From Thermoplasmatales archaeon (GTDB lineage Archaea; Thermoplasmatota; Thermoplasmata; Thermoplasmatales; Thermoplasmataceae): 64,000 nucleotides of DNA. Each line of letters opens with the position of its first letter. Position 1 is the stretch's first letter. The notes beneath the pieces are model-generated. The model had not been told where the DNA came from and searched no databases. It was given only the letters and a program-made list of their open reading frames with translations. This document shows, in pieces, positions 8,456 through 18,300 of the stretch. A program made the translations under genes and the position numbers. The DNA is taken from contig DAIDBH010000019.1 of NCBI GenBank assembly GCA_027310185.1, positions 32,001 through 96,000 of the forward strand. Direction: 5' to 3'.

Positions 8456-9841
8456 ATGGAGCATAAAAAGGAAGATTTTAGTGAATGGTATAATGAAATA
8501 ATAGACATTTCCCAGCTTACAGATAAGAGGTACCCAGTTAAGGGGATGAATGTCTGGATGCCCTATGGATACAGCCTGATGAAAAACACGGATGAAATGA
8601 TCAGGAACAAGTTCTACGAAGATGAATATGAGGAGGTGATGTTTCCTTCATTGATCTCAAGGCCAATGTTTGAAATTGAATTTGAGCACATTAAAGGCTT
8701 TGAAAAAGAGCTGTTCTGGATAACAAAGGGTGGAAGAGAATCCCTTGAAGAAGACCTTGCTATGAGGCCAACCAGTGAAGCTGCAATTTACCCAATGTTG
8801 AAATTATGGATAAGAGATCATGGCGATCTACCAAAGAGAATCTTTCAGATTGTCCAGGTGTACCGTTATGAAACAAAACATACACGACCATTCATAAGAT
8901 CAAGGGATATCCACTTTATAGAATGCCACACTGCCCACGAGACTTATGACGATTCAGAGGAACAGATGGACCTGTACAGGAGGGAATGGGATTATTTTAC
9001 GAAAAAGCTCTGTCTACCCTATATGGAAGTAAGAAGACCGGAGTGGGATAAGTTCCCCGGTGCTGTTTACACCATAGCATTTGATACGCTTATGCCATCT
9101 GGCAGGACTCTTCAGATCGGGACAATTCACGAATATGGCAGTAATTTTTCAAAGAATTATGACGTGAAATTTGCAAAGGAAGATGGAAGCAGTCAATATG
9201 TTAACCAAACCACATTCGGTATGAGTGAAAGATTAATAGCAGCCATAGTTGGAATCCATGGAGATGACAAGGGCCTGATTCTCCCTCCGTTTGTTGCCCC
9301 AACGCAGGTAGTCATAGTTCCAATCTCATCTGCGGATTCCAGGCTTGAATCCTTTGTACACGAAATAGAGTCAAAAGTTAAGGCCAGTGGGTTCAGGGTG
9401 ATTGTTGATGATAATGATAACTATACACCTGGTTACAAATTTAACCAGTGGGAAATGAAGGGGGTGCCTCTGAGGATAGAAATAGGCAAAAGAGAGGCTG
9501 AATCAAATACAATTACTGTGTCCCTGAGAACAAGGAAGGGAAGGGTAAAGTTGAACAAAGATGATACGGCAGAGCTTCAAAATTTGCTGGATGAGGTAGA
9601 AAATGATCTGCTTAATAATGCCAGGAAGATACTTATGAATGGGATTGATGGAATTCCAAATAGTGGACAGGAGTCTAACATAAAGACATTTATCATCTGT
9701 GATAGTGAGAAATGCGCAAGATCGATAGAGGCAAGAACCGAGCTTGACATGATGGGACACATCCTGAATTACGGGTCTAAAGGTAGATGTGAGGTTTGTG
9801 GAAATGAAGGGAGAACTGCCCTCTTCTCTAGACCATACTGA
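8456..9841 (+). CDS. proS: Prolyl-tRNA synthetase (archaeal type)
   Basis: DFSEWYN, RPTSEA, YRYETKHTRPFIR, GVPLRIEIG, C-terminal Cys cluster and terminal Tyr. Confidence 0.97.
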   Translation: MEHKKEDFSEWYNEIIDISQLTDKRYPVKGMNVWMPYGYSLMKNTDEMIRNKFYEDEYEEVMFPSLISRPMFEIEFEHIKGFEKELFWITKGGRESLEEDLAMRPTSEAAIYPMLKLWIRDHGDLPKRIFQIVQVYRYETKHTRPFIRSRDIHFIECHTAHETYDDSEEQMDLYRREWDYFTKKLCLPYMEVRRPEWDKFPGAVYTIAFDTLMPSGRTLQIGTIHEYGSNFSKNYDVKFAKEDGSSQYVNQTTFGMSERLIAAIVGIHGDDKGLILPPFVAPTQVVIVPISSADSRLESFVHEIESKVKASGFRVIVDDNDNYTPGYKFNQWEMKGVPLRIEIGKREAESNTITVSLRTRKGRVKLNKDDTAELQNLLDEVENDLLNNARKILMNGIDGIPNSGQESNIKTFIICDSEKCARSIEARTELDMMGHILNYGSKGRCEVCGNEGRTALFSRPY

Positions 9842-10499
9842 GCACAAGCCAATTGTGTTCTTTGACATGGATGGGGTGCTCACCACAGAGAAGAGCAGCT
9901 GGAACTATGTTCATTCAAGACTGGGAGTTGATAACAACCTCAATTATTCACTTTTCAGGGCAGGAAAGATAGATTATCATGAATTTATGAGGCGTGATGT
10001 TAACCTGTGGATCCAGGAAATGGGTGAGGTACAGGTAAGCCAGATAAGGGAAATCCTTAATGAAATTGAACTGTTTCCAGGAGCAGTGGAAGCAACCGGA
10101 ACACTTGCTGCTGAGGGATTTCATCTTGTAATAGTATCAGGTGGATTGATGTGGCTGGCGGAAAGGGTCGGAAGACTTACGGGAATAAGTGATATTTATG
10201 CAAATATAATTCTATCACTGGGTGGAAAGGTACTGCCTGATGGGAAAGCTGTGGTGGACCCAAAAAGGAAGGATATAGTAGTAAACAGTGTTATAAGCAC
10301 TTATAAGCCTGAATATTCCATTTCAGTTGGGGATTCTCCAGATGATGAAAAGATGTTTATGGTCACCGACTATTCCATAAGCATGAACAATGAGCCGGGG
10401 TTCATAAATACCATGGGTTTTGACCTCAAAACTGATAACCTGAAGTCATGTGCTGATCTCATTCTGGGGATCAGGGATCAGAGAAATGAAATCACCTGA
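9789..10499 (+). CDS. HAD-superfamily phosphatase, phosphoserine phosphatase-like (likely start ATG 9804)
   Basis: FDMDGVL, VSGG and GDSPDD motifs. Confidence 0.85.
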   Translation: MRFVEMKGELPSSLDHTEHKPIVFFDMDGVLTTEKSSWNYVHSRLGVDNNLNYSLFRAGKIDYHEFMRRDVNLWIQEMGEVQVSQIREILNEIELFPGAVEATGTLAAEGFHLVIVSGGLMWLAERVGRLTGISDIYANIILSLGGKVLPDGKAVVDPKRKDIVVNSVISTYKPEYSISVGDSPDDEKMFMVTDYSISMNNEPGFINTMGFDLKTDNLKSCADLILGIRDQRNEIT

Positions 10500-11178
10500 A
10501 ATGAGAAGGGAGGAGAAACTTCCCTTTGGAATAGGATGCATAGATCAGTTTCTTGAAGGTGGGATCGATCCAGGGGTAATTACGCAGATATATGGGGAAG
10601 GCGGTTCGGGAAAGACAAACATGGCTCTTCAGCTTACGGTATCTACATTATCCAGGGGAGACAAGGTCGTATATATTGATACAGAGGGATTCTCAAGCAA
10701 CCGTTTTCTGCAGATCTGCGGAGGAAATCAGGAATATTCAAACAACCTGATTCTTTTCACCCCGGAGAACATAGGTGAGCAGGAGGTATGTCTCATAAAG
10801 GCTGAGAGAATGATGCAGAATTCAGATGATATAAAACTTCTGGTTATTGATTCAATGACTGCACTGCTGAGAATTGAAAGAGATGAAAACCTGAAAAACC
10901 AGGGACTATCAAGGGATATATCCATTCTAAACACCATATGTAACAAACACAAGATTCCTGTTTTCATCACAAACCAGATATATTTTGACGTGGAGGAAAA
11001 CCAGATCACTCCATATGGGGGGTATCTCCTGAATCATTTCTCAAAGACAATACTTTCGATCAGGCGGTCAAGGGGAACCGGTAGGGAAGTGAAAATAGTG
11101 AAGCACAGGTCAATACTGGACGGAAAAGCCATTGAAATATTCATCAACAGTACAGGCCTGTCATGTACAGAGGCATGA
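10450..11178 (+). CDS. radB: DNA repair protein RadB (likely start ATG 10485 or 10501)
   Basis: Walker A GEGGSGKT, LVIDS, and the RadB-specific C-terminal KHR motif. No RadA N-terminal domain. Confidence 0.92.
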   Translation: MLISFWGSGIREMKSPEMRREEKLPFGIGCIDQFLEGGIDPGVITQIYGEGGSGKTNMALQLTVSTLSRGDKVVYIDTEGFSSNRFLQICGGNQEYSNNLILFTPENIGEQEVCLIKAERMMQNSDDIKLLVIDSMTALLRIERDENLKNQGLSRDISILNTICNKHKIPVFITNQIYFDVEENQITPYGGYLLNHFSKTILSIRRSRGTGREVKIVKHRSILDGKAIEIFINSTGLSCTEA

Positions 11179-11235: not shown

Positions 11236-12255
11236 ATGGGAGTTAATCTTGAGCCCATCCTGATAAAACACAAAACTCATATAAAGGATTTCTCAAATAA
11301 TACAGTTTCAGTGGATGCTTACAATCAGATCTACCAGTTCCTCAGTGCAATAAGGCAGCCAGACGGGACACCATTGATGGATTCTTCTGGAAAGGTAACA
11401 TCCCATCTAAGCGGTCTGTTTTACCGGACAATATCACTCATGGAAGAGGGTCTTAAACCTGTATACGTTTTCGATGGCAAGCCGTCCCCAATGAAACTGA
11501 GAACACTCGAGGAGAGGAAGGCAATAAAGGAGAACTCAGAAAGGGAACTGGAAAAGGCAATCATGACTTCAGACAGGGAAAAAATTGCAAGGTTGAAGAG
11601 AAGTATAAATCACATCACAAAGGACATGATTGATGAAAGCAAGCAACTACTCACATATATGGGATTGCCATATGTACAGGCTCCTTCTGAAGGGGAGTGC
11701 CAGGCATCATACATGAGTTCTACAGGAAAGGTAAATGCAGTCATCTCACAGGATTATGACTGCCTGTTGTTCGGTGCAAGGGAGGTTTTGAGGAATTTCA
11801 CCATATATGGAAAGAGAAGGGTTTCGAGCAGGAACATCTACGTTACTGTGGACCCGGAATACATAGATCTGAAGGAGAATCTCACCGGTATGAATATAAC
11901 AAGGAGTCAGCTGGTAGATATAGCCATAATGGTTGGAACGGATTTCAACAGTGGAGTTGAGAGAGTCGGCCCAAAGACAGCATTGAACCTGATCCAGAAG
12001 CACGGAAACCTGGAGATGGTCATCAAGGAGAAGGGTTACAGGATACCTCAATACGAAGAGGTGAGAAAACTATTCCTTGAGCCGGAGGTAACGGATGATT
12101 TCAGCGTCTCATTCGGAAAGCCTGAAGAAGAAAAAATATACTCGTTTCTCTGCGATCTTCACAACTTCGGTGAAAACAGGGTAAAACCATTCATAGAAAA
12201 ACTGAAAACAAGCCTTCAGAAGGGAAACCAGTCCAGTCTTGATTCATTTTTCTAG
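11236..12255 (+). CDS. fen: Flap endonuclease 1
   Basis: MGV start, YQFLSAIRQPDGTPL, APSEGE, SQDYD, GTDFN and C-terminal PIP box QSSLDSFF. Confidence 0.97.
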   Translation: MGVNLEPILIKHKTHIKDFSNNTVSVDAYNQIYQFLSAIRQPDGTPLMDSSGKVTSHLSGLFYRTISLMEEGLKPVYVFDGKPSPMKLRTLEERKAIKENSERELEKAIMTSDREKIARLKRSINHITKDMIDESKQLLTYMGLPYVQAPSEGECQASYMSSTGKVNAVISQDYDCLLFGAREVLRNFTIYGKRRVSSRNIYVTVDPEYIDLKENLTGMNITRSQLVDIAIMVGTDFNSGVERVGPKTALNLIQKHGNLEMVIKEKGYRIPQYEEVRKLFLEPEVTDDFSVSFGKPEEEKIYSFLCDLHNFGENRVKPFIEKLKTSLQKGNQSSLDSFF

Positions 12256-13230
12256 ATAATCCCTCAGTACAGAGAAGGGCTTCATCATTACTGACAGGTT
12301 ATCAGATACGGACTCCTTGAGGTCCATTGGATGAATCGAACCAGCATTATACATAACCTCTAGAGAACTGTAATTATTGAATATTATGTCTCCGCCTTTC
12401 TTCTCTGGCCTGTGTATAGTTACTTCCTTCATTGAAGGAAATATAATTATCTTCATTATATCCATAATTGGGTTCCCTTCCGATGTCCCCATTGGACAGA
12501 AAGAATTTCTTATCTTCCTTCTTATGTCCTCTTCAGAGTCTGTCATTAGGATAGCGCTGTCAGGATCACTTTTTGACATCTTCTTGAAAGTATCCATTCT
12601 TCCAGTTCCCTTCAGGCTTCCGAGAAGTGGTGAGTGCATGGATACAACCTTTTTTCTGTTCATCTTTTCCGCAATATCCCTTGCAAGCATGTGAGCATGT
12701 CTCTGATCCATCCCACCCAGCGCAACGTCAAGATCCAGTTCAAATATATCGTTTACCTGCATCACTGGATAAAGGTATTTGCTGAAATCGGACTCGGCAT
12801 CAGACTCATCTCTTCCCATTATGGGGAGAGCACGTTTCAACCTAGAAAGAGTTGTCTGTTTTGCAGTCCGGATGATCCCTTCCATGTAACTGCTCTTATC
12901 TATCAGGTCGGATGCCCAAATAAATTCAGGTTTCAAATCACCCATTTCTATCTCGTAGGCTTTTTTCAGAAGTTCTCCGCTCTGTCTTATACGTTCCAGG
13001 TCTCCGCCCAGTTTATCGTTCACCATGGCATGCCAGTCAGCAAGCAGTATCTGCATCCTGATACCGGCTTTCATCATCGCCTTGATCCTGGTACCTATAA
13101 CCAGAATATGTCCTATATGGGGTATGCCTGAGGGTTCCACGCCATGATATCCCTTGCAGTTTTTTTCAAGGGCCTCAAACTCACTTTCTGTTACAATTTC
13201 TTCAAAAAGGGAAGTATCAAGATTCAACAA
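12244..13230 (-). CDS. tyrS: Tyrosyl-tRNA synthetase
   Basis: HIGH, ADWHA, YPVMQVND, GGMDQ and KMSKS motifs. Confidence 0.96.
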   Translation of the reverse strand: MLNLDTSLFEEIVTESEFEALEKNCKGYHGVEPSGIPHIGHILVIGTRIKAMMKAGIRMQILLADWHAMVNDKLGGDLERIRQSGELLKKAYEIEMGDLKPEFIWASDLIDKSSYMEGIIRTAKQTTLSRLKRALPIMGRDESDAESDFSKYLYPVMQVNDIFELDLDVALGGMDQRHAHMLARDIAEKMNRKKVVSMHSPLLGSLKGTGRMDTFKKMSKSDPDSAILMTDSEEDIRRKIRNSFCPMGTSEGNPIMDIMKIIIFPSMKEVTIHRPEKKGGDIIFNNYSSLEVMYNAGSIHPMDLKESVSDNLSVMMKPFSVLRDYLEK

Positions 13231-13249
13231 TATACAGGCATCAAATTAT

Positions 13250-13768
13250 CTATCTTAATCTTTCCCTACATATACTCCTGTACTTGCAGTTCACGCATCT
13301 TCCGGGGTTATCATGATTCCTGTTAGGGACACCTCTCACCCTCCTGATAAGTTGAGCTCTTGCAAGTACCCTGTCCTTCAATTCTGGACTGTTATTGATA
13401 TAGAACGATCTGTTCCGGTATTTTATAACACCGTACTGGATCATATTTTCAGGGTAAAGCTCCTGAAGGATGATGAAATAAACTCCCATTTGAATTATGT
13501 GCGGTTCCCAGGGTTGGTCGCCTATATTGCTGCTTTTGTACTCATAGGGAATTATTTGCCCACTGTTTTCTATCACTCTATCCGGCTTACCCGACAGGCC
13601 ATATCTTTTTGAAACCAGGATTTTCCCCTCTGCTTTCATGTCTCCATATATGAACCTTCCCCTGGGCATCTCATAATAGTCCACTCTCCTTCTAGCCTTA
13701 AGGAAATAGAAGACGAGAATTAACAGAACCACAATAAATGGGACGATGAAATAAACAGGAAGCAACAT
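13250..13768 (-). CDS. Cas4-like PD-(D/E)xK nuclease, C-terminal part, with N-terminal TM helix
   Basis: GLSGKPD, EYK, QMGVY (QxxxY) and CVNCKYRSIC (CxxC-x5-C). Residues about 2-23 are hydrophobic, followed by KARRR. Confidence 0.88.
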   Translation of the reverse strand: MLLPVYFIVPFIVVLLILVFYFLKARRRVDYYEMPRGRFIYGDMKAEGKILVSKRYGLSGKPDRVIENSGQIIPYEYKSSNIGDQPWEPHIIQMGVYFIILQELYPENMIQYGVIKYRNRSFYINNSPELKDRVLARAQLIRRVRGVPNRNHDNPGRCVNCKYRSICRERLR

Positions 13769-13769
13769 T

Positions 13770-14039
13770 TCAGACGAACACTACAAACATGAACACAATA
13801 ACAAGCAATATGGCAATTATGAGGGTAACACTTAGTTTCGAGTTTCTCTCGTGATCTATATCGGCATCCTCGTGAGCTATGGTGCCCCTATTCATCCTTT
13901 CAACTTTGTCAGCCGGGATTCTGTATCCTTCACGGGTATAATACCATGAGAGGGCACAGTAGTCAAACTCAGCAAGTTCCGATGCACTGATAATTCTTTC
14001 TCCCTCATCAGGGTTGTTTCTCGATCCAGATTCTGTCAT
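13770..14039 (-). CDS. Cas4-like nuclease N-terminal fragment with C-terminal TM helix
   Basis: ISASELAEFDYCALSWYY...RGTIAHE matches the Cas4 N-terminal Cys plus G-x3-H motif. The last 20 or so residues are hydrophobic. Confidence 0.8.
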   Translation of the reverse strand: MTESGSRNNPDEGERIISASELAEFDYCALSWYYTREGYRIPADKVERMNRGTIAHEDADIDHERNSKLSVTLIIAILLVIVFMFVVFV

Positions 14040-14781
14040 ATGAGCGCTCCTGTTTTAGTGCGATAGTACCATTCTTCCTGATAAACATACTGTATATAAA
14101 GAACTTTACCCTATCCTCCTTTGTTTCTCCCCACACTTCTTCCATGAAGAAAGAATCTTCCCTCATATTCATGATCTTCTGCATGATTGATTCAAGGTCT
14201 CTCTCAGGCTCACCAGAATTCAGTACTTCATAGATTTCTTCAACCTCTGCAACCTGTTCCATATGGGGCATCCTGACGATTTTTTCCCTGCTCCTTTCTG
14301 TTTTCCTCATAACCTCAATGAGTTCCACTAGCATGACCTTCCTCGTTTCGTGATGCTTGACTGGCATATTCAGGCTTATAAATTCCTTTTCCTCTATTTC
14401 CAAATCATTTACTTCTTCCTGTGATAAATCCTGATAATTCTCTACAGTCTCTTCAGCTTCTTTCTTGCCAAAGTTATCAATCAGGTCGTTAGCCTGCACA
14501 TACACTATTCCCCATGACCTGTATATTATATATCCTGCTTCTGCAATGGACATCAGACCTGCATTTGTTAATTCCCTTACTATAAGAACAAAATTAACAA
14601 CATCTACACGCCACGGATCTATTTCTCTTGCAATGCACCGTTCCATTATCTCTATAATGTTCTTCGTCTCTTCCTTTGTATCCTTGAAGTCGAGCTCTTC
14701 ATAGAACCTCGTATCAATGCCAATAGTTGATGCCTGAACAATTATTGTCCTTTTAAGATCAATTAGCTGTGTATCTTCCAT
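14008..14781 (-). CDS. scpA: Kleisin ScpA
   Basis: EIDPWRVDV motif, RKVMLVELIE and winged-helix-like C-terminus. Directly after smc. Confidence 0.85.
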   Translation of the reverse strand: MEDTQLIDLKRTIIVQASTIGIDTRFYEELDFKDTKEETKNIIEIMERCIAREIDPWRVDVVNFVLIVRELTNAGLMSIAEAGYIIYRSWGIVYVQANDLIDNFGKKEAEETVENYQDLSQEEVNDLEIEEKEFISLNMPVKHHETRKVMLVELIEVMRKTERSREKIVRMPHMEQVAEVEEIYEVLNSGEPERDLESIMQKIMNMREDSFFMEEVWGETKEDRVKFFIYSMFIRKNGTIALKQERSYDRIWIEKQP

Positions 14782-17700
14782 CTATTCACCTCCAAAGCTT
14801 TTGGAAAAAATTTCCGTGCAACCTGCTGCTTTGTTCATGGTAACCCCGAATAGGGAGTTTGCGTACTTGCTCATGGCATTCTTCAATGATATCATAATGA
14901 TTTGAGAGGTATTTGAATTTTCCCTTAACAACTCACCCATTGCCTCAGCATTGGTACCATCCAGGAACATGTCAATTTCGTCAAGGAAATAAATGGGTGA
15001 GGGCTTGATTCTCTGGACCGCAACAATGAACGAAAGTGCTACCAGACTCTTCTCACCACCACTTAGCGACTGTAATTTTGTATATGTAGTGCCCTTAGGC
15101 TTTGCCTTTATCAACAATTCTGAATCCAGTGGTTTTGATTCATCGGAGAGATACATATCCACGTCACCTCCCCTCGTCAATCTCTTGAATATTTCCCTCA
15201 TCTCGACTTTTACCTTTCCATAAAGATCAAGAAGAACTCTTGTCTTTACCTCTTCCAGTTCTGCCATTAACTTAATAAGGGAGTCAACTTCCCTCTTCAG
15301 AATGTCAATTTTTTCAACCAGATTATCCCTTCTTTCCGTATCTCTCCTGAGATCTTCCTCTGCCAGCTGGTTTACTGCACCAATTTCCTGTAATTTTGCA
15401 ACCTTAACGGCAATTTCGCTGTTCGCCCTCTGTGCGCTTGAGTAGTCAGTAATAACATGACCACCGTTCTGCCTGAGTTCTTCCCTAAGTGCTGATAACC
15501 TTTCATTGAAGTTCTGTATCTTTATCTTTGAGGTGAGAACAGCATTTTCATGATTCTTCATTTCAGACTCCAACCTTGAACTTTTCTGACTGATATCTGA
15601 AATTTGCCTCTCTATTTCCTTCAGCCCCTGAATGATTTTTCTGTTATTTTCATTGAGCTTTTCCTCTTCCCCCTCGAGTCTTCCTATTTCATTTCCAAAT
15701 CTTGCAATTTCCTCTTCTATCCGATCTTTTTCTATAGTTTCTGCATTTATGTTCTTTATCAGATTGTCATCTTCCATCATCAACTCTGACTTTCTTTCTG
15801 ATATTTTCTTCATTGTTGTCTGATTGCTGGATTTAGTTGCCATGGTAGAATTTTGTTCATTACTTATCTTTTCAAGCTCCTTTTGAAGTTCTGAGAGATC
15901 ATTCCCCTCCTCCTTATTGTCACCTATGATCATATAAAGTTCATTCTTTCGCTTCTCAAGAGATGCTTTCTTGCTCTCCTCTCCTGCTATTTCATTCTGA
16001 AGTTTTTCAAGTGAAGCAGAACTGTTTTTCAGCTCAATTTTGAGGGTCTGAATCTCAAGTTCAAGTGATTCCCTGATTTTCTGGCTCTCCTTTAACTGGG
16101 ATTCCAGTGAATCAGACTTTCCCTTCCCTTCACCACCACTCTTTGATATATCCATCAGTTGTTTTGATACATCGTCATACTCCTGTCTCAAATTTCTCGT
16201 TTCACGATCAAGACTGTTGAATCTTTCTCTAAGTTCCTCAAGAAGTTTTTCCCTGTTTTCCAGTTCAGAAAAGTTGAATGTTTTCCTGGTCCTGTTCATG
16301 AATCCTCCTGATATTGCACCACTAGCCTCAAATATGTCCCCATCAAGAGTCACAATTCTAACGCCTGTCATATACTTCTTTGCACTTTCAGGAGTATCGA
16401 CAACAACAGTATCCTGGAACGTGTACCATATGGCGTTAGCATAAACATCCTGGCACTGAATCTGCTGGCTCAGTAGGGAAGTTGAACGGTCCTGCTGAAT
16501 AATAGTAAGGGCCTTACCTCTTGGTCTTCCAGGCAAGATCTTATTCAGTGGGATAAAGGTTACACGTCCGAGCTTCTTCTCTCTCAGTAATTCAATGCAT
16601 TCCTGGGCCACATCTTCATTATCAACTACTATGGAATTCAGTCTTCCACCTGCTGCTGCCTCCACAGCAAGCGCATACCTGTCGTCATAACTTATGAGTT
16701 CTCCTATGGATCTGTGTATTCCAGATATGGCTCCTCTTGCCTTTGCTTCCATTATTGCAGAAATGGATTTGTTGGCGAAGCCCTGGGAGCCCATTTCAGA
16801 TCTCATTCTTTCCACTTCCTTTCCGAGGGAATCCATTTTTGATCTAGTCTCTGTTCTTTCTCTTTCTCGATCCTTGATCTGGGATTGCAGTTCATAATAT
16901 TTCTTACTCAGGGACTCGTTTCTGGACCTGTTTCCTCCCTCGTCCTTCTTGATCTGGTTTAACTGCCATTGAGTTTCAGATAATCTGTATTTCTCGTTTG
17001 TAAGGCTCTCTTCTTTAATACCAAGCTTTGTTTCTATTCCCTTGAATCTCTTTGATTCCTCAGACTCCTCTCTTCTTATTTTTTCAGTAATATTTGAATT
17101 CTCTTTAAGTTCCTTCTCTATAATAGTCAGCTCATCAGTTGCCTTCCTGTACTCTTCTGTCTTATTTCTCTGAAGTTCTATCTTCTGATTTATCTGGGCC
17201 CTCAGAGAAGTTTCCCTATATTTCAATTCTTCTTCCCTGCTCATGAGCTCATTAAAGGACTTTGCAAGATTATCTATCTCCTCATCTATCTCTTCGATCT
17301 TGCCTGTATTTGTTTCTATAAGACCACGTTCTTTATCTATATTCATGCTGATGTTTGAAGCATTTATTTCTGCTCTGGCTCTTTCCAGTTTTTTGGATTC
17401 TATACCTTTTCTTATACCTTCAAGCTCCTTCTGAATCCTTTCTCCAATTCCTTTCTCTATTTCCATTCTCTTCTGCGTGAGTGTCTCATGTTCTCTGGTT
17501 AGATCATCCAGTAGGGCCTTAATTTCAGCCATTTTCTTTTCACTCTCTTCCATTGATTGCTGATGGCCACTGAGATCTATCTCAACTCCACGGATCTGGA
17601 TGGAGAGGGCAGTGGCTTTTAAATCAACAATTTCACTGTTAAGACTCCTATATTCTCTCAGCTTTTCAGCCTCTTTCTCTATTATTGCAATATTTTCTTC

Positions 17701-18300
17701 AATCTCTGTTCGCAATGTTTCTGACGCAAGTATTGTCTTATCGATCTCATCGATCTTTTCTTTTGCAGAATTGATCCTCATATTGTAGGCATCTATTCCT
17801 GCTATGGATTCCAGCAATTTTCTTCTTTCATTTCCACTGACATATATAAATTTATTTATGTCTCCCTGCAGGACGAAGCTATAGGAGTCCAGCTGGATTC
17901 CGATATTTTCGAGAAACCTGTCAACCTCACTGTGCTTTGATCTCTTGCCATTTATGAAATAAGTACTGTTTATTTCATTACCACTCTCTTCAATAACTCT
18001 TGATATTTCCACTGTTTCAAAAGATTCATCATCTCTATCTTCGACAAATACTGCCTTGACCTCTGCCTTGGAAATCTTCTTATCCCCATTGCCAGGATTG
18101 TGTATTAAATCATCGAGTTTGTCAGCTCTCACAGTCTTGGATGATCTTGTACCGAGGACAAACAGGAGGGAGTCACCTATATTGCTTTTCCCACTACCAT
18201 TGGGACCAGCTATCATGCTCAATCCTGGCCTGAAATCTATCTTCATGCCCCTATGGCAGAAAGATTTGAAATTTTTAATTTCTAAGCTGTATAGTCTCAA
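14782..18300 (-). CDS. smc: Chromosome segregation protein SMC
   Basis: Walker A GPNGSGKSN, hinge GRVTFIPL...GAISGG, signature LSGGEKS, Walker B LDEID and long coiled coils. Confidence 0.97.
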   Translation of the reverse strand: MRLYSLEIKNFKSFCHRGMKIDFRPGLSMIAGPNGSGKSNIGDSLLFVLGTRSSKTVRADKLDDLIHNPGNGDKKISKAEVKAVFVEDRDDESFETVEISRVIEESGNEINSTYFINGKRSKHSEVDRFLENIGIQLDSYSFVLQGDINKFIYVSGNERRKLLESIAGIDAYNMRINSAKEKIDEIDKTILASETLRTEIEENIAIIEKEAEKLREYRSLNSEIVDLKATALSIQIRGVEIDLSGHQQSMEESEKKMAEIKALLDDLTREHETLTQKRMEIEKGIGERIQKELEGIRKGIESKKLERARAEINASNISMNIDKERGLIETNTGKIEEIDEEIDNLAKSFNELMSREEELKYRETSLRAQINQKIELQRNKTEEYRKATDELTIIEKELKENSNITEKIRREESEESKRFKGIETKLGIKEESLTNEKYRLSETQWQLNQIKKDEGGNRSRNESLSKKYYELQSQIKDRERERTETRSKMDSLGKEVERMRSEMGSQGFANKSISAIMEAKARGAISGIHRSIGELISYDDRYALAVEAAAGGRLNSIVVDNEDVAQECIELLREKKLGRVTFIPLNKILPGRPRGKALTIIQQDRSTSLLSQQIQCQDVYANAIWYTFQDTVVVDTPESAKKYMTGVRIVTLDGDIFEASGAISGGFMNRTRKTFNFSELENREKLLEELRERFNSLDRETRNLRQEYDDVSKQLMDISKSGGEGKGKSDSLESQLKESQKIRESLELEIQTLKIELKNSSASLEKLQNEIAGEESKKASLEKRKNELYMIIGDNKEEGNDLSELQKELEKISNEQNSTMATKSSNQTTMKKISERKSELMMEDDNLIKNINAETIEKDRIEEEIARFGNEIGRLEGEEEKLNENNRKIIQGLKEIERQISDISQKSSRLESEMKNHENAVLTSKIKIQNFNERLSALREELRQNGGHVITDYSSAQRANSEIAVKVAKLQEIGAVNQLAEEDLRRDTERRDNLVEKIDILKREVDSLIKLMAELEEVKTRVLLDLYGKVKVEMREIFKRLTRGGDVDMYLSDESKPLDSELLIKAKPKGTTYTKLQSLSGGEKSLVALSFIVAVQRIKPSPIYFLDEIDMFLDGTNAEAMGELLRENSNTSQIIMISLKNAMSKYANSLFGVTMNKAAGCTEIFSKSFGGE

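Follow-up and report, generated by a model that had tools for sequence, protein, structure and literature searches.

Two consecutive open reading frames (ORFs) in a 64,000-nucleotide (nt) stretch from a Thermoplasmatales archaeon (GenBank assembly GCA_027310185.1, contig DAIDBH010000019.1, positions 32,001 to 96,000; hereafter the window, in whose own numbering positions are given) appear to encode the two subunits of a Cas4-family nuclease that is tethered to the membrane, faces the cytoplasm and completes its [4Fe-4S] site, and probably its metal site as well, with residues from both chains. We put the probability of this architecture at roughly 80%. The reading is carried by the homology of both halves to Cas4, the conservation of the pair, purifying selection on both genes, a charge-based topology and a predicted interface; beyond these, we infer iron-sulfur (Fe-S) binding, nuclease activity, substrate and cellular role.

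Both ORFs are on the minus strand, which places gene A (89 amino acids, aa) upstream of gene B (172 aa). A contains the strings ISASELAEFDYCALSWYY (with Cys28) and RGTIAHE (with His56), in the context ...ERIISASELAEFDYC(28)ALSWYY...RGTIAH(56)E..., and ends with its 21-residue hydrophobic stretch, leaving no outside tail. B opens with a hydrophobic helix followed by KARRR and continues with GKPD, EYK, Q93xxxY97 (between the ExK motif and the Cys cluster) and CxxC-x5-C. The ORFs and their motifs are as described in the initial annotation, which was made from the sequence without database searches; only the minus strand has to be added. The set of four Cys is complete only across the two polypeptides, with Cys28 of A followed by Cys158, Cys161 and Cys167 of B in the right order, again as that annotation had it. 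Cys28 is invariant in 19/19 aligned A halves, and Gly60, Pro62, His90, Arg150 and the three C-terminal Cys are invariant in the 18 aligned B halves.

B is matched by Cas4 and related nuclease profiles, including TIGR00372 (cas4; profile positions 54-179 of 180, E = 7.8e-15, 55.2 bits), PF01930 (30-158 of 160; 25.7 bits, above the cut-off of 22.7), PF12705 (PDDEXK_1; 118-247 of 247) and several PADLOC Cas4 models (best E = 2.1e-18). A PF01930 search across the genome itself left B out, its prefilter having missed the protein, although B passes the cut-off of that profile when scanned directly. A matches the beginnings of the same profiles, at positions 2-45 of 247 in PDDEXK_1 (E = 0.0023), 2-43 in TIGR00372 (E = 0.16) and 4-53 of 161 in the PADLOC Cas4 model PDLC01447 (E = 0.0013). 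Going by profile coordinates, the matches of A are weak but precisely complementary to those of B: in PDLC01447, A takes positions 4-53, B takes 32-159, and P0049, a natural single chain of 268 aa with two transmembrane (TM) helices, takes 3-159. P0049 also spans positions 2-247 of PDDEXK_1, and these matches make it an example of the unsplit version. A1, a profile built from 19 A-type proteins, aligned with the N-terminus of the single-chain relatives (A3) with an hhalign probability of 95.5% (E = 1.4e-8) and with Cys and His in register, in keeping with the earlier proposal that the small ORF corresponds to the Cas4 N-terminus. Against the canonical Cas4 domain of the same genome, the probability for A1 was 3% (E = 0.013), with Cys and His still lining up. 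The B-half profile retrieved one Cas4 only from the PDB sequences (8d3l_I, E = 1.4e-5).

The single-chain relatives consist of an N-terminal Cys/His module, then two, four or eight TM helices, then the Cas4 core. We searched the B-half profile against 1.84 billion representatives, which gave 1893 matches at E <= 1e-3 and 723 at E <= 1e-10, and analyzed the best 150. Proteins of up to 200 aa make up 107 of these, 95 of them with exactly one TM helix before GxPD and no N-terminal Cys motif (the B type). Another 17 have 201-300 aa, most frequently with two TM helices (10/17), 21 have 301-400 aa and mostly four TM helices, and the 5 that exceed 400 aa have eight. Forms with two (~265-285 aa) and eight (~534-596 aa) TM helices were seen solely among the database representatives; single chains with four (~322-356 aa) occur in Aciduliprofundum/DHVE2, in Methanomassiliicoccales and in many metagenome-assembled genomes of Thermoplasmata. 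The fused forms have mostly an even number of helices, which brings the chain back to the side of the membrane from which it set out. In the eight-TM relatives (P0056, P0057, P0059, P0079 and P0151; 534-596 aa) the Cas4 core lies behind the membrane block, and the N-terminal Cys motif lies ahead of it in 4/5, its pattern being unmatched in P0079. The eight-TM block matched no Pfam family, and a comparison of the TM insertions with Pfam gave no credible match, the only similarities (to TauE, DUF2721, CrgA and DUF2085) being below threshold. The model of a fused relative (predicted local distance difference test score, pLDDT, 71.9) has long helices over residues 38-190, followed by an alpha/beta core, and its Foldseek matches include Cas4 8d3l_I (E = 4.7e-5), Cas4-Cas1 7mi5, Dna2, MGME1, Cas4 4r5q and SSO0001 4ic1. 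Because single chains with two, four and eight TM helices exist and P0049 covers whole profiles from end to end, insertion of TM helices into Cas4 and fission of the gene within the hairpin, as first suggested for this locus, is the simplest reading.

The distribution of charges suggests on which side of the membrane the soluble parts lie. Across 23 A halves, Lys plus Arg (K+R) average 3.2 in the 15 aa before the TM helix and 0.04 after it; across 22 B halves, K+R is 0 in the N-terminal tail and averages 3.8 in the 15 aa after the helix. In the four-TM forms of the Aciduliprofundum type, the segments that flank the helices have K+R of 5, 0, 4, 0 and 4. Under the positive-inside rule, an established regularity of membrane proteins, this pattern places both soluble parts in the cytoplasm, in split and fused forms alike, which is the orientation that the initial annotation had assigned to them.

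A complex of the two halves was predicted from our own alignments of A and B with a 4Fe-4S ligand, a setup outside the calibration of the score. The ipSAE values were 0.74, 0.73 and 0.74, against 0.00 in all three controls; the mark applied is one that 116/157 solved complexes and 2/215 mismatched pairs reach, and a pass may here reflect likeness to solved Cas4 structures. Contact agreement between the runs was at least 77% and partner pLDDT at least 63. The confident interface comprises residues 13-34, 39 and 41 of A and residues 52, 57-61, 88-97, 134-152, 157, 161-167 and 169 of B. In the model, Cys28 of A contacts residues 151, 152 and 157 of B, adjoining C158/C161/C167. Assembly as a heterodimer and convergence of the four Cys, both of which had been proposed, are consistent with this prediction.

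The pair is conserved as a pair. In a search of 41 related genomes, with 31 loci fetched and checked by tblastn and frame logic, B was found in 28 genomes, among them every one of the 16 other members of the genus, each time with an open frame of ~176-191 aa. The A part lies directly upstream of the B part, on the same strand, in 31/31 loci, 23 of them split and 8 fused (one frame, 322-356 aa). Another 20 loci in which the open frame is short, 13 of them in family f26 and 7 in other f1 genera, are all split, with A directly upstream and every motif kept; counting these, A is immediately 5' of B in 43/43 split loci. When one genome per species was scanned with the fused alignment, 151 relatives came up; the 80 that were kept are all single-frame, 74 being complete with all five motifs. 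The halves thus occur together in the 43 split loci and joined in 8 + 80 loci, the joint conservation that was to be expected of parts of one enzyme according to the initial annotation. Compared with the closest relative, A has a ratio of nonsynonymous to synonymous substitution rates (dN/dS) of 0.062 and B one of 0.025; pairs further apart have saturated synonymous sites, with pN far below pS. Both genes are under strong purifying selection.

At E <= 1e-10, the B-type profile is found in 274/401 sampled genomes of the phylum, with rates that differ among families (f26, 50/53; f29, 23/24; f15, 14/14; f1, 13/26; f8, 2/48). A-type small proteins form 86 clusters in public sets, where they go by 'hypothetical protein' or, in one source, by 'Cas4 (RecB family)', and 84 of the clusters have the Cys motif together with a C-terminal TM helix. 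P0204 and similar proteins of 78-81 aa (P0193, P0207, P0212 and P0230) form a distinct A-type group; one source assigns P0204 to a Chloroflexi bacterium, and on that assignment the split architecture may also occur in bacteria.

In a tree of 105 rows built from the soluble columns only (22 split and 83 fused sequences), a single branch (Shimodaira-Hasegawa-like approximate likelihood ratio test, SH-aLRT, 100) parts split from fused forms, and one change of state is needed. Three genomes of genus g13 (G028, G032 and G035; loci L020-L025) each carry both a fused four-TM copy and a split pair; the genes of the split pair overlap by 43 nt and cluster with the Cuniculiplasma-type pairs in this tree. 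A poorly resolved FastTree of 224 rows, for which the 'split' state of database proteins was taken from length and TM count alone, has at least six changes of state, at least three of them forced by well-supported branches. The architecture is old and widespread in the Thermoplasmatota and is not peculiar to one genome. The picture is also broader than the initial annotation foresaw, in that the family is phylum-wide and some of its orthologs lack catalytic residues.

The D, ExK and QxxxY motifs are kept in 145/150 representatives and in 20/20 further loci. Five split loci, of two kinds, have lost catalytic residues. In L016-L019 (genomes G009, G010, G001 and G005, from one clade of the Cuniculiplasma genus) the His of A is replaced by Tyr, the ExK of B reads M-F-R, and the TM helix of B is degenerate. 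In L026 (G002) the D, E and K are all lost, GRPS standing in place of the first motif and no ExK being present. All five keep the smc-scpA context described below. In L016-L019 the loss of His in A coincides with the loss of E and K in B, which fits a single composite site. To judge from their sequences, selection in these species acts on something besides cleavage, e.g., an Fe-S module, DNA binding or tethering.

Taken together, these observations suggest the following mechanism. The PD-(D/E)XK fold of the Cas4 family would be interrupted by a membrane hairpin, the gene being cut within the hairpin loop. A would contribute the N-terminal helix with Cys28 and His56, cross the membrane once and end; B would start outside, cross back in (with KARRR following its TM helix) and contribute the core, with Asp63, Glu76, Lys78, Gln93 and Tyr97, as well as the three remaining Cys. 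Docking of the cytoplasmic parts of A and B would complete the [4Fe-4S] site and probably the metal site, such that the enzyme would exist only as a membrane-tethered heterodimer, with the close coupling of the two genes keeping the halves in step. As a solo paralog, it would have no part in CRISPR adaptation. By analogy with Cas4, Dna2 and AddB-type enzymes, and from its genomic context, it could serve in housekeeping processing of DNA ends or single-stranded DNA near the membrane.

Several points weigh against this reading. Membrane insertion, heterodimer formation, Fe-S binding and nuclease activity are predictions, and the topology is based on hydropathy and charge counts. B falls short of the equivalog cut-off of TIGR00372 (55.2 against 65 bits; A scores 11.8), and A by itself misses the curated PDDEXK_1 cut-off (18.4 bits, with 22 required). 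The TM helices and His56 of A are outside the confident interface, the alignments and the ligand were uncalibrated, and the halves of a split gene can pass by resemblance to solved Cas4, so that the pass attests likeness to the Cas4 fold rather than proven binding. Catalytic residues are missing from 5/43 split loci (L016-L019 and L026), and since all four Cys are kept in each, a role free of cleavage is possible. Finally, neighborhoods differ between lineages and therefore point to no consistent functional partner.

The neighborhood in the window is a same-strand run in the order smc-scpA-A-B-tyrS (Table 1), kept in 27/27 loci of f1, the family to which the window's genome belongs. The 257-aa ORF between smc and A has no Pfam or NCBIfam match by itself. 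A profile of 16 of its orthologs matches ScpA (6ivh_A, E = 1.3e-6) and also ScpA/Rad21 C-terminal domains, and in its model a helical N-domain and a C-terminal winged helix flank a disordered middle, a kleisin-like layout; on the strength of the profile search and its position after smc, we identify it as a divergent ScpA kleisin.

Table 1. Features of the gene pair and its surroundings in the window (residue numbers refer to the respective protein).
Feature	Position (strand)	Description
ORF	9789-10499	Upstream of RadB/Fen1
RadB	10450-11178 (+)	Beyond tyrS; converges on the smc-scpA-A-B-tyrS run
Fen1	11236-12255 (+)	Beyond tyrS; converges on the smc-scpA-A-B-tyrS run
tyrS (tyrosine-tRNA ligase)	12244..13230 (-)	19 nt downstream of B; NF006330, E = 3.6e-113
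Gene B, 172 aa	13250..13768 (-)	N-terminal membrane anchor, Cas4/RecB-like nuclease core and three C-terminal Cys; stop at 13250-13252
C158-x2-C161-x5-C167	13268..13297 (-)	Three putative C-terminal Fe-S ligands; all invariant in 18/18 B halves
E76-Y-K78	13535..13543 (-)	ExK catalytic motif; M-F-R instead in L016-L019, lost in L026
GKPD motif, residues 60-63	13580..13591 (-)	Catalytic Asp63 (by family motif); G60 and P62 invariant in 18 B halves, D63 in at least 90%
Positive cluster K24-A-R-R-R28	13685..13699 (-)	Directly after the TM helix of B; marks the predicted cytoplasmic side
TM helix of B, residues 2-23	13700..13765 (-)	Hydropathy 3.02
Junction TGA-A-ATG	13766..13772 (-)	Stop of A, one spacer base, start of B; +1 frame offset
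Gene A, 89 aa	13770..14039 (-)	N-terminal module of Cas4-like nuclease and C-terminal membrane anchor; stop TGA at 13770-13772
TM helix of A, Leu69-Val89	13773..13835 (-)	Hydropathy 3.47 over 19 aa
Soluble part of A, residues 1-66	13842..14039 (-)	Predicted cytoplasmic; Cys28 (first Fe-S ligand, putative), His56 (candidate metal ligand)
scpA (kleisin, 257 aa)	14008..14781 (-)	Last 32 nt shared with the start of gene A
smc	14782..18300 (-)	First gene of the run; TIGR02169, 741.6 bits, above cut-off

This arrangement raises the possibility that the pair is a membrane-tethered DNA-binding or Fe-S-sensing module that acts with SMC-ScpA in chromosome organization or segregation, cleavage being secondary or dispensable. 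The constant order of the four genes in family f1, the overlap of A with the end of scpA and the presence of RadB and Fen1 nearby speak for it, as do the five split loci that have lost catalytic residues (D/E/K/H) and retain four Cys and both TM anchors or their remnants. Outside f1, however, neither smc nor scpA was found beside the pair or a fused form (0/11 non-f1 loci and 0/13 loci of family f26). Among the seven f26 loci whose flanks were scanned, a divergent pelota-like gene lies upstream in five and an ABCE1/RLI-type gene downstream in three, the split pair of genus g13 sits downstream of a DUF2240 gene, and fused forms and other loci have varied housekeeping neighbors, such as RFC, a tRNA methyltransferase and a metallo-beta-lactamase-fold protein. 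A conserved functional partner was not found in the neighborhoods of the lineages examined. Synteny within one family can be plain inheritance, and the catalytic motifs are retained by nearly all representatives and by all 20 further loci; we regard the SMC-ScpA module as an unlikely explanation.

About as improbable, in our judgment, is an innate defense nuclease that sits at the membrane and degrades the ends of incoming viral or plasmid DNA on entry. The Cas4 family is tied to defense, a membrane site would suit the interception of entering DNA, ACE1 (9iab/9iac) is among the structural matches of the fused model, and the accessible part of one report describes solo Cas4-like enzymes that work with Argonautes against invaders (PMC12094033). 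Against this stand the flanks of the loci examined, which consist of core housekeeping genes and not of defense genes or mobile elements, and the near-uniform presence in many families (f26, f29 and f15), unlike the patchy occurrence typical of defense genes. In the 105-row tree, moreover, sequences of the same source group mostly cluster. From its neighborhoods, this looks like a core gene passed on largely by vertical descent, not like part of a defense island.

A part in CRISPR adaptation is also improbable, as the initial annotation held. The sole Cas1 match in the genome is on another contig (C5, the window being on C4), in an open frame of 557 aa that also contains the canonical Cas4 domain (G000 contig C5:9170-10651; L032/L033); a genome-wide search gave no Cas1 match on the contig of the window, which was covered by that search and not by a dedicated CRISPR-array scan. 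This Cas4-Cas1 fusion fits the Cas4/Cas1 gene reported, in the part of the source available, for Cuniculiplasma strain S5 (PMC5155288). Since the genome has its own fusion elsewhere and the pair lies among housekeeping genes, A-B would be a solo paralog with a role outside CRISPR adaptation. Two further Cas4-like domains (C18:15391-15759 and C4:3080-3427) are parts of longer open frames (918 and 899 aa), possibly those of helicase-nucleases.

Much less probable than either of the first two alternatives is that A and B are one protein, joined by a +1 frameshift or read-through at the TGA or separated by an assembly error or recent pseudogene formation, the true product being a single chain with two TM helices. 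Such chains do exist in nature among the relatives of ~265-285 aa. On the coding strand the junction reads GTC-TGA-A-ATG, which gives B its own ATG 1 nt past the stop of A, and GTC-TGA-A offers no tRNA re-pairing in the +1 frame, as reasoned from the sequence. The same junction recurs in L002-L007 despite protein identities of 57-89%, an ATG for B is present at the junction in 22/23 split loci, and the gaps among split relatives vary among +1, +4, -1 (TGATG), -4 (ATGA) and -43 nt, a range of geometries that argues against a shared sequencing artifact or a conserved recoding signal. Strong purifying selection acts on both reading frames. Contigs from RNA libraries (two runs, one sample) show no differences from the window over 12200-15200, and one of them (13520-15036) runs without a difference through B, A, scpA and the end of smc; such contigs cannot demonstrate a transcript, DNA carry-over being possible and the sample perhaps the window's own source, and they are compatible with the frame offset without lending it independent support. 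A sequencing or assembly error or a pseudogene is ruled out for the window by the recurrence of the junction in several genomes, the differing geometries and the low dN/dS, and a programmed frameshift is unlikely there, given how the junction reads and that no signal is conserved.

Some loci elsewhere lend more to the idea of a joined product, and L012 and some f26 loci remain candidates for a programmed frameshift. In L012 (G019, genus g4) B has no ATG, GTG or TTG, and one extra G in a run of seven (G7) would fuse the frames; this junction is either an assembly error or an evolutionary intermediate. A single stop codon (TAA) is all that separates A from B in L127, L131 and L134, where both share one frame. 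That stop directly precedes ATG in L131 and GTG in L134. Nine loci of family f26 (L116, L118, L119, L120, L122, L123, L124, L125 and L126) lack a canonical start upstream of the TM helix of B. These nine have a conserved Shine-Dalgarno-like GAGGTG (GGGGTG in L120 and L123) 6 nt before the TAG or TAA stop of A, and their B frames, without ATG, GTG or TTG before the TM helix, have an ATA overlapping that stop (ATAG/ATAA). From these sequences, B of f26 probably starts at ATA by termination-reinitiation, or else recoding joins the halves.

That B alone is the enzyme, with three Cys and another ligand, and that A is an unrelated small membrane protein upstream by chance is scarcely credible: the weak Cas4 and PDDEXK_1 matches of A would allow it, and it is countered by the alignment of A with the fused N-terminus with Cys and His in register, the Cys motif and C-terminal TM helix of nearly all A-type database proteins, the constant adjacency of the genes, the invariance of Cys28 and an interface prediction far above that of the controls.

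The preferred reading of a split membrane nuclease can be combined with parts of its alternatives. The Thermoplasmatota, and possibly some Chloroflexi, would then have a housekeeping membrane nuclease whose [4Fe-4S] and catalytic sites form only when two subunits, inserted separately into the membrane, dock, and which would tie the processing of DNA ends to the membrane's inner face. Within the Cuniculiplasma family, the pair would be co-transcribed and translationally coupled with SMC-ScpA and act at the membrane on chromosomal DNA in segregation or division, and nuclease-dead orthologs would keep only the tethering and Fe-S functions. With all of its parts, this proposal is speculative, and we think it improbable that every one of them holds.

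The Cas4 family is treated as one of small soluble Fe-S enzymes, and what its many 'solo' copies do in archaea is an open question. The family described here would constitute a large, conserved Cas4 branch that is built into the membrane and often made from two genes, in which case neither the Fe-S site nor, probably, the active site of the split forms would lie in one polypeptide. It would provide a natural test case of how an Fe-S 'staple' and a PD-(D/E)XK site tolerate domain insertion and fission, and it suggests a kind of DNA transaction, located at the archaeal membrane, that has no known enzyme. Public records call the 89-aa protein a 'hypothetical protein' and the 172-aa one 'CRISPR-associated Cas4', labels that wrongly imply a truncated CRISPR gene and that the present annotation corrects.

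Full-text searches of the literature found no description of a transmembrane or split Cas4, supplements and subscription journals lying outside their coverage; in the parts available, PMC5704561, PMC13621843, PMC5155288, PMC11237513 and PMC12669027 do not describe one. The main text of PMC5704561 has 0 occurrences of 'transmembrane', 'split' and 'Thermoplasma', its supplements being outside this count. Solo-Cas4 genes, as presented in the available parts of Hudaiberdiev et al. 2017 (PMC5704561) and of work on Methanosarcina mazei (PMC12501428), are Cas4-family genes away from CRISPR-cas loci; those described there appear to be soluble single chains, whereas A-B is split and, as predicted, membrane-anchored.

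The Cas4 of CRISPR adaptation (PF01930/TIGR00372; SSO0001 4IC1, Pcal_0546 4R5Q, type I-C 8D3L and Cas4-Cas1 7MI5) shares with A-B the RecB-like PD-(D/E)XK core with D, ExK and QxxxY, and likewise has one N-terminal and three C-terminal Cys in the same order. It differs in being a single soluble polypeptide of about 160-220 aa; in A-B, membrane helices break up the chain between the His motif and the core, and the coding is divided between two genes, which do not lie beside Cas1. A-B also has family-specific conserved residues, namely H90 before QxxxY and R150-N-H152 before the Cys cluster. The nuclease domains of Dna2, AddB/AdnAB and MGME1 have the same fold, as indicated by Foldseek with the model of the fused relative (5eax, 7sjr and 5zyv), and Dna2 and AddB have an Fe-S 'staple' of one plus three Cys. 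These are soluble domains of large helicase-nucleases or mitochondrial enzymes and, unlike A-B, none is known to be membrane-anchored or split. The closest likeness is to the single-chain relatives in the Thermoplasmatota, which have the same N-terminal module, insertion point, core and Cys set; each of these is a single polypeptide whose TM helices are even in number, whereas A-B has one TM helix per subunit and two genes. In one respect, then, the finding is less exotic than it may seem, single-chain forms being common. The Cas4 fold and its chemistry are known; what appears new is the membrane insertion, the even series of two, four and eight TM helices, and the recurrent fission into a heterodimer.

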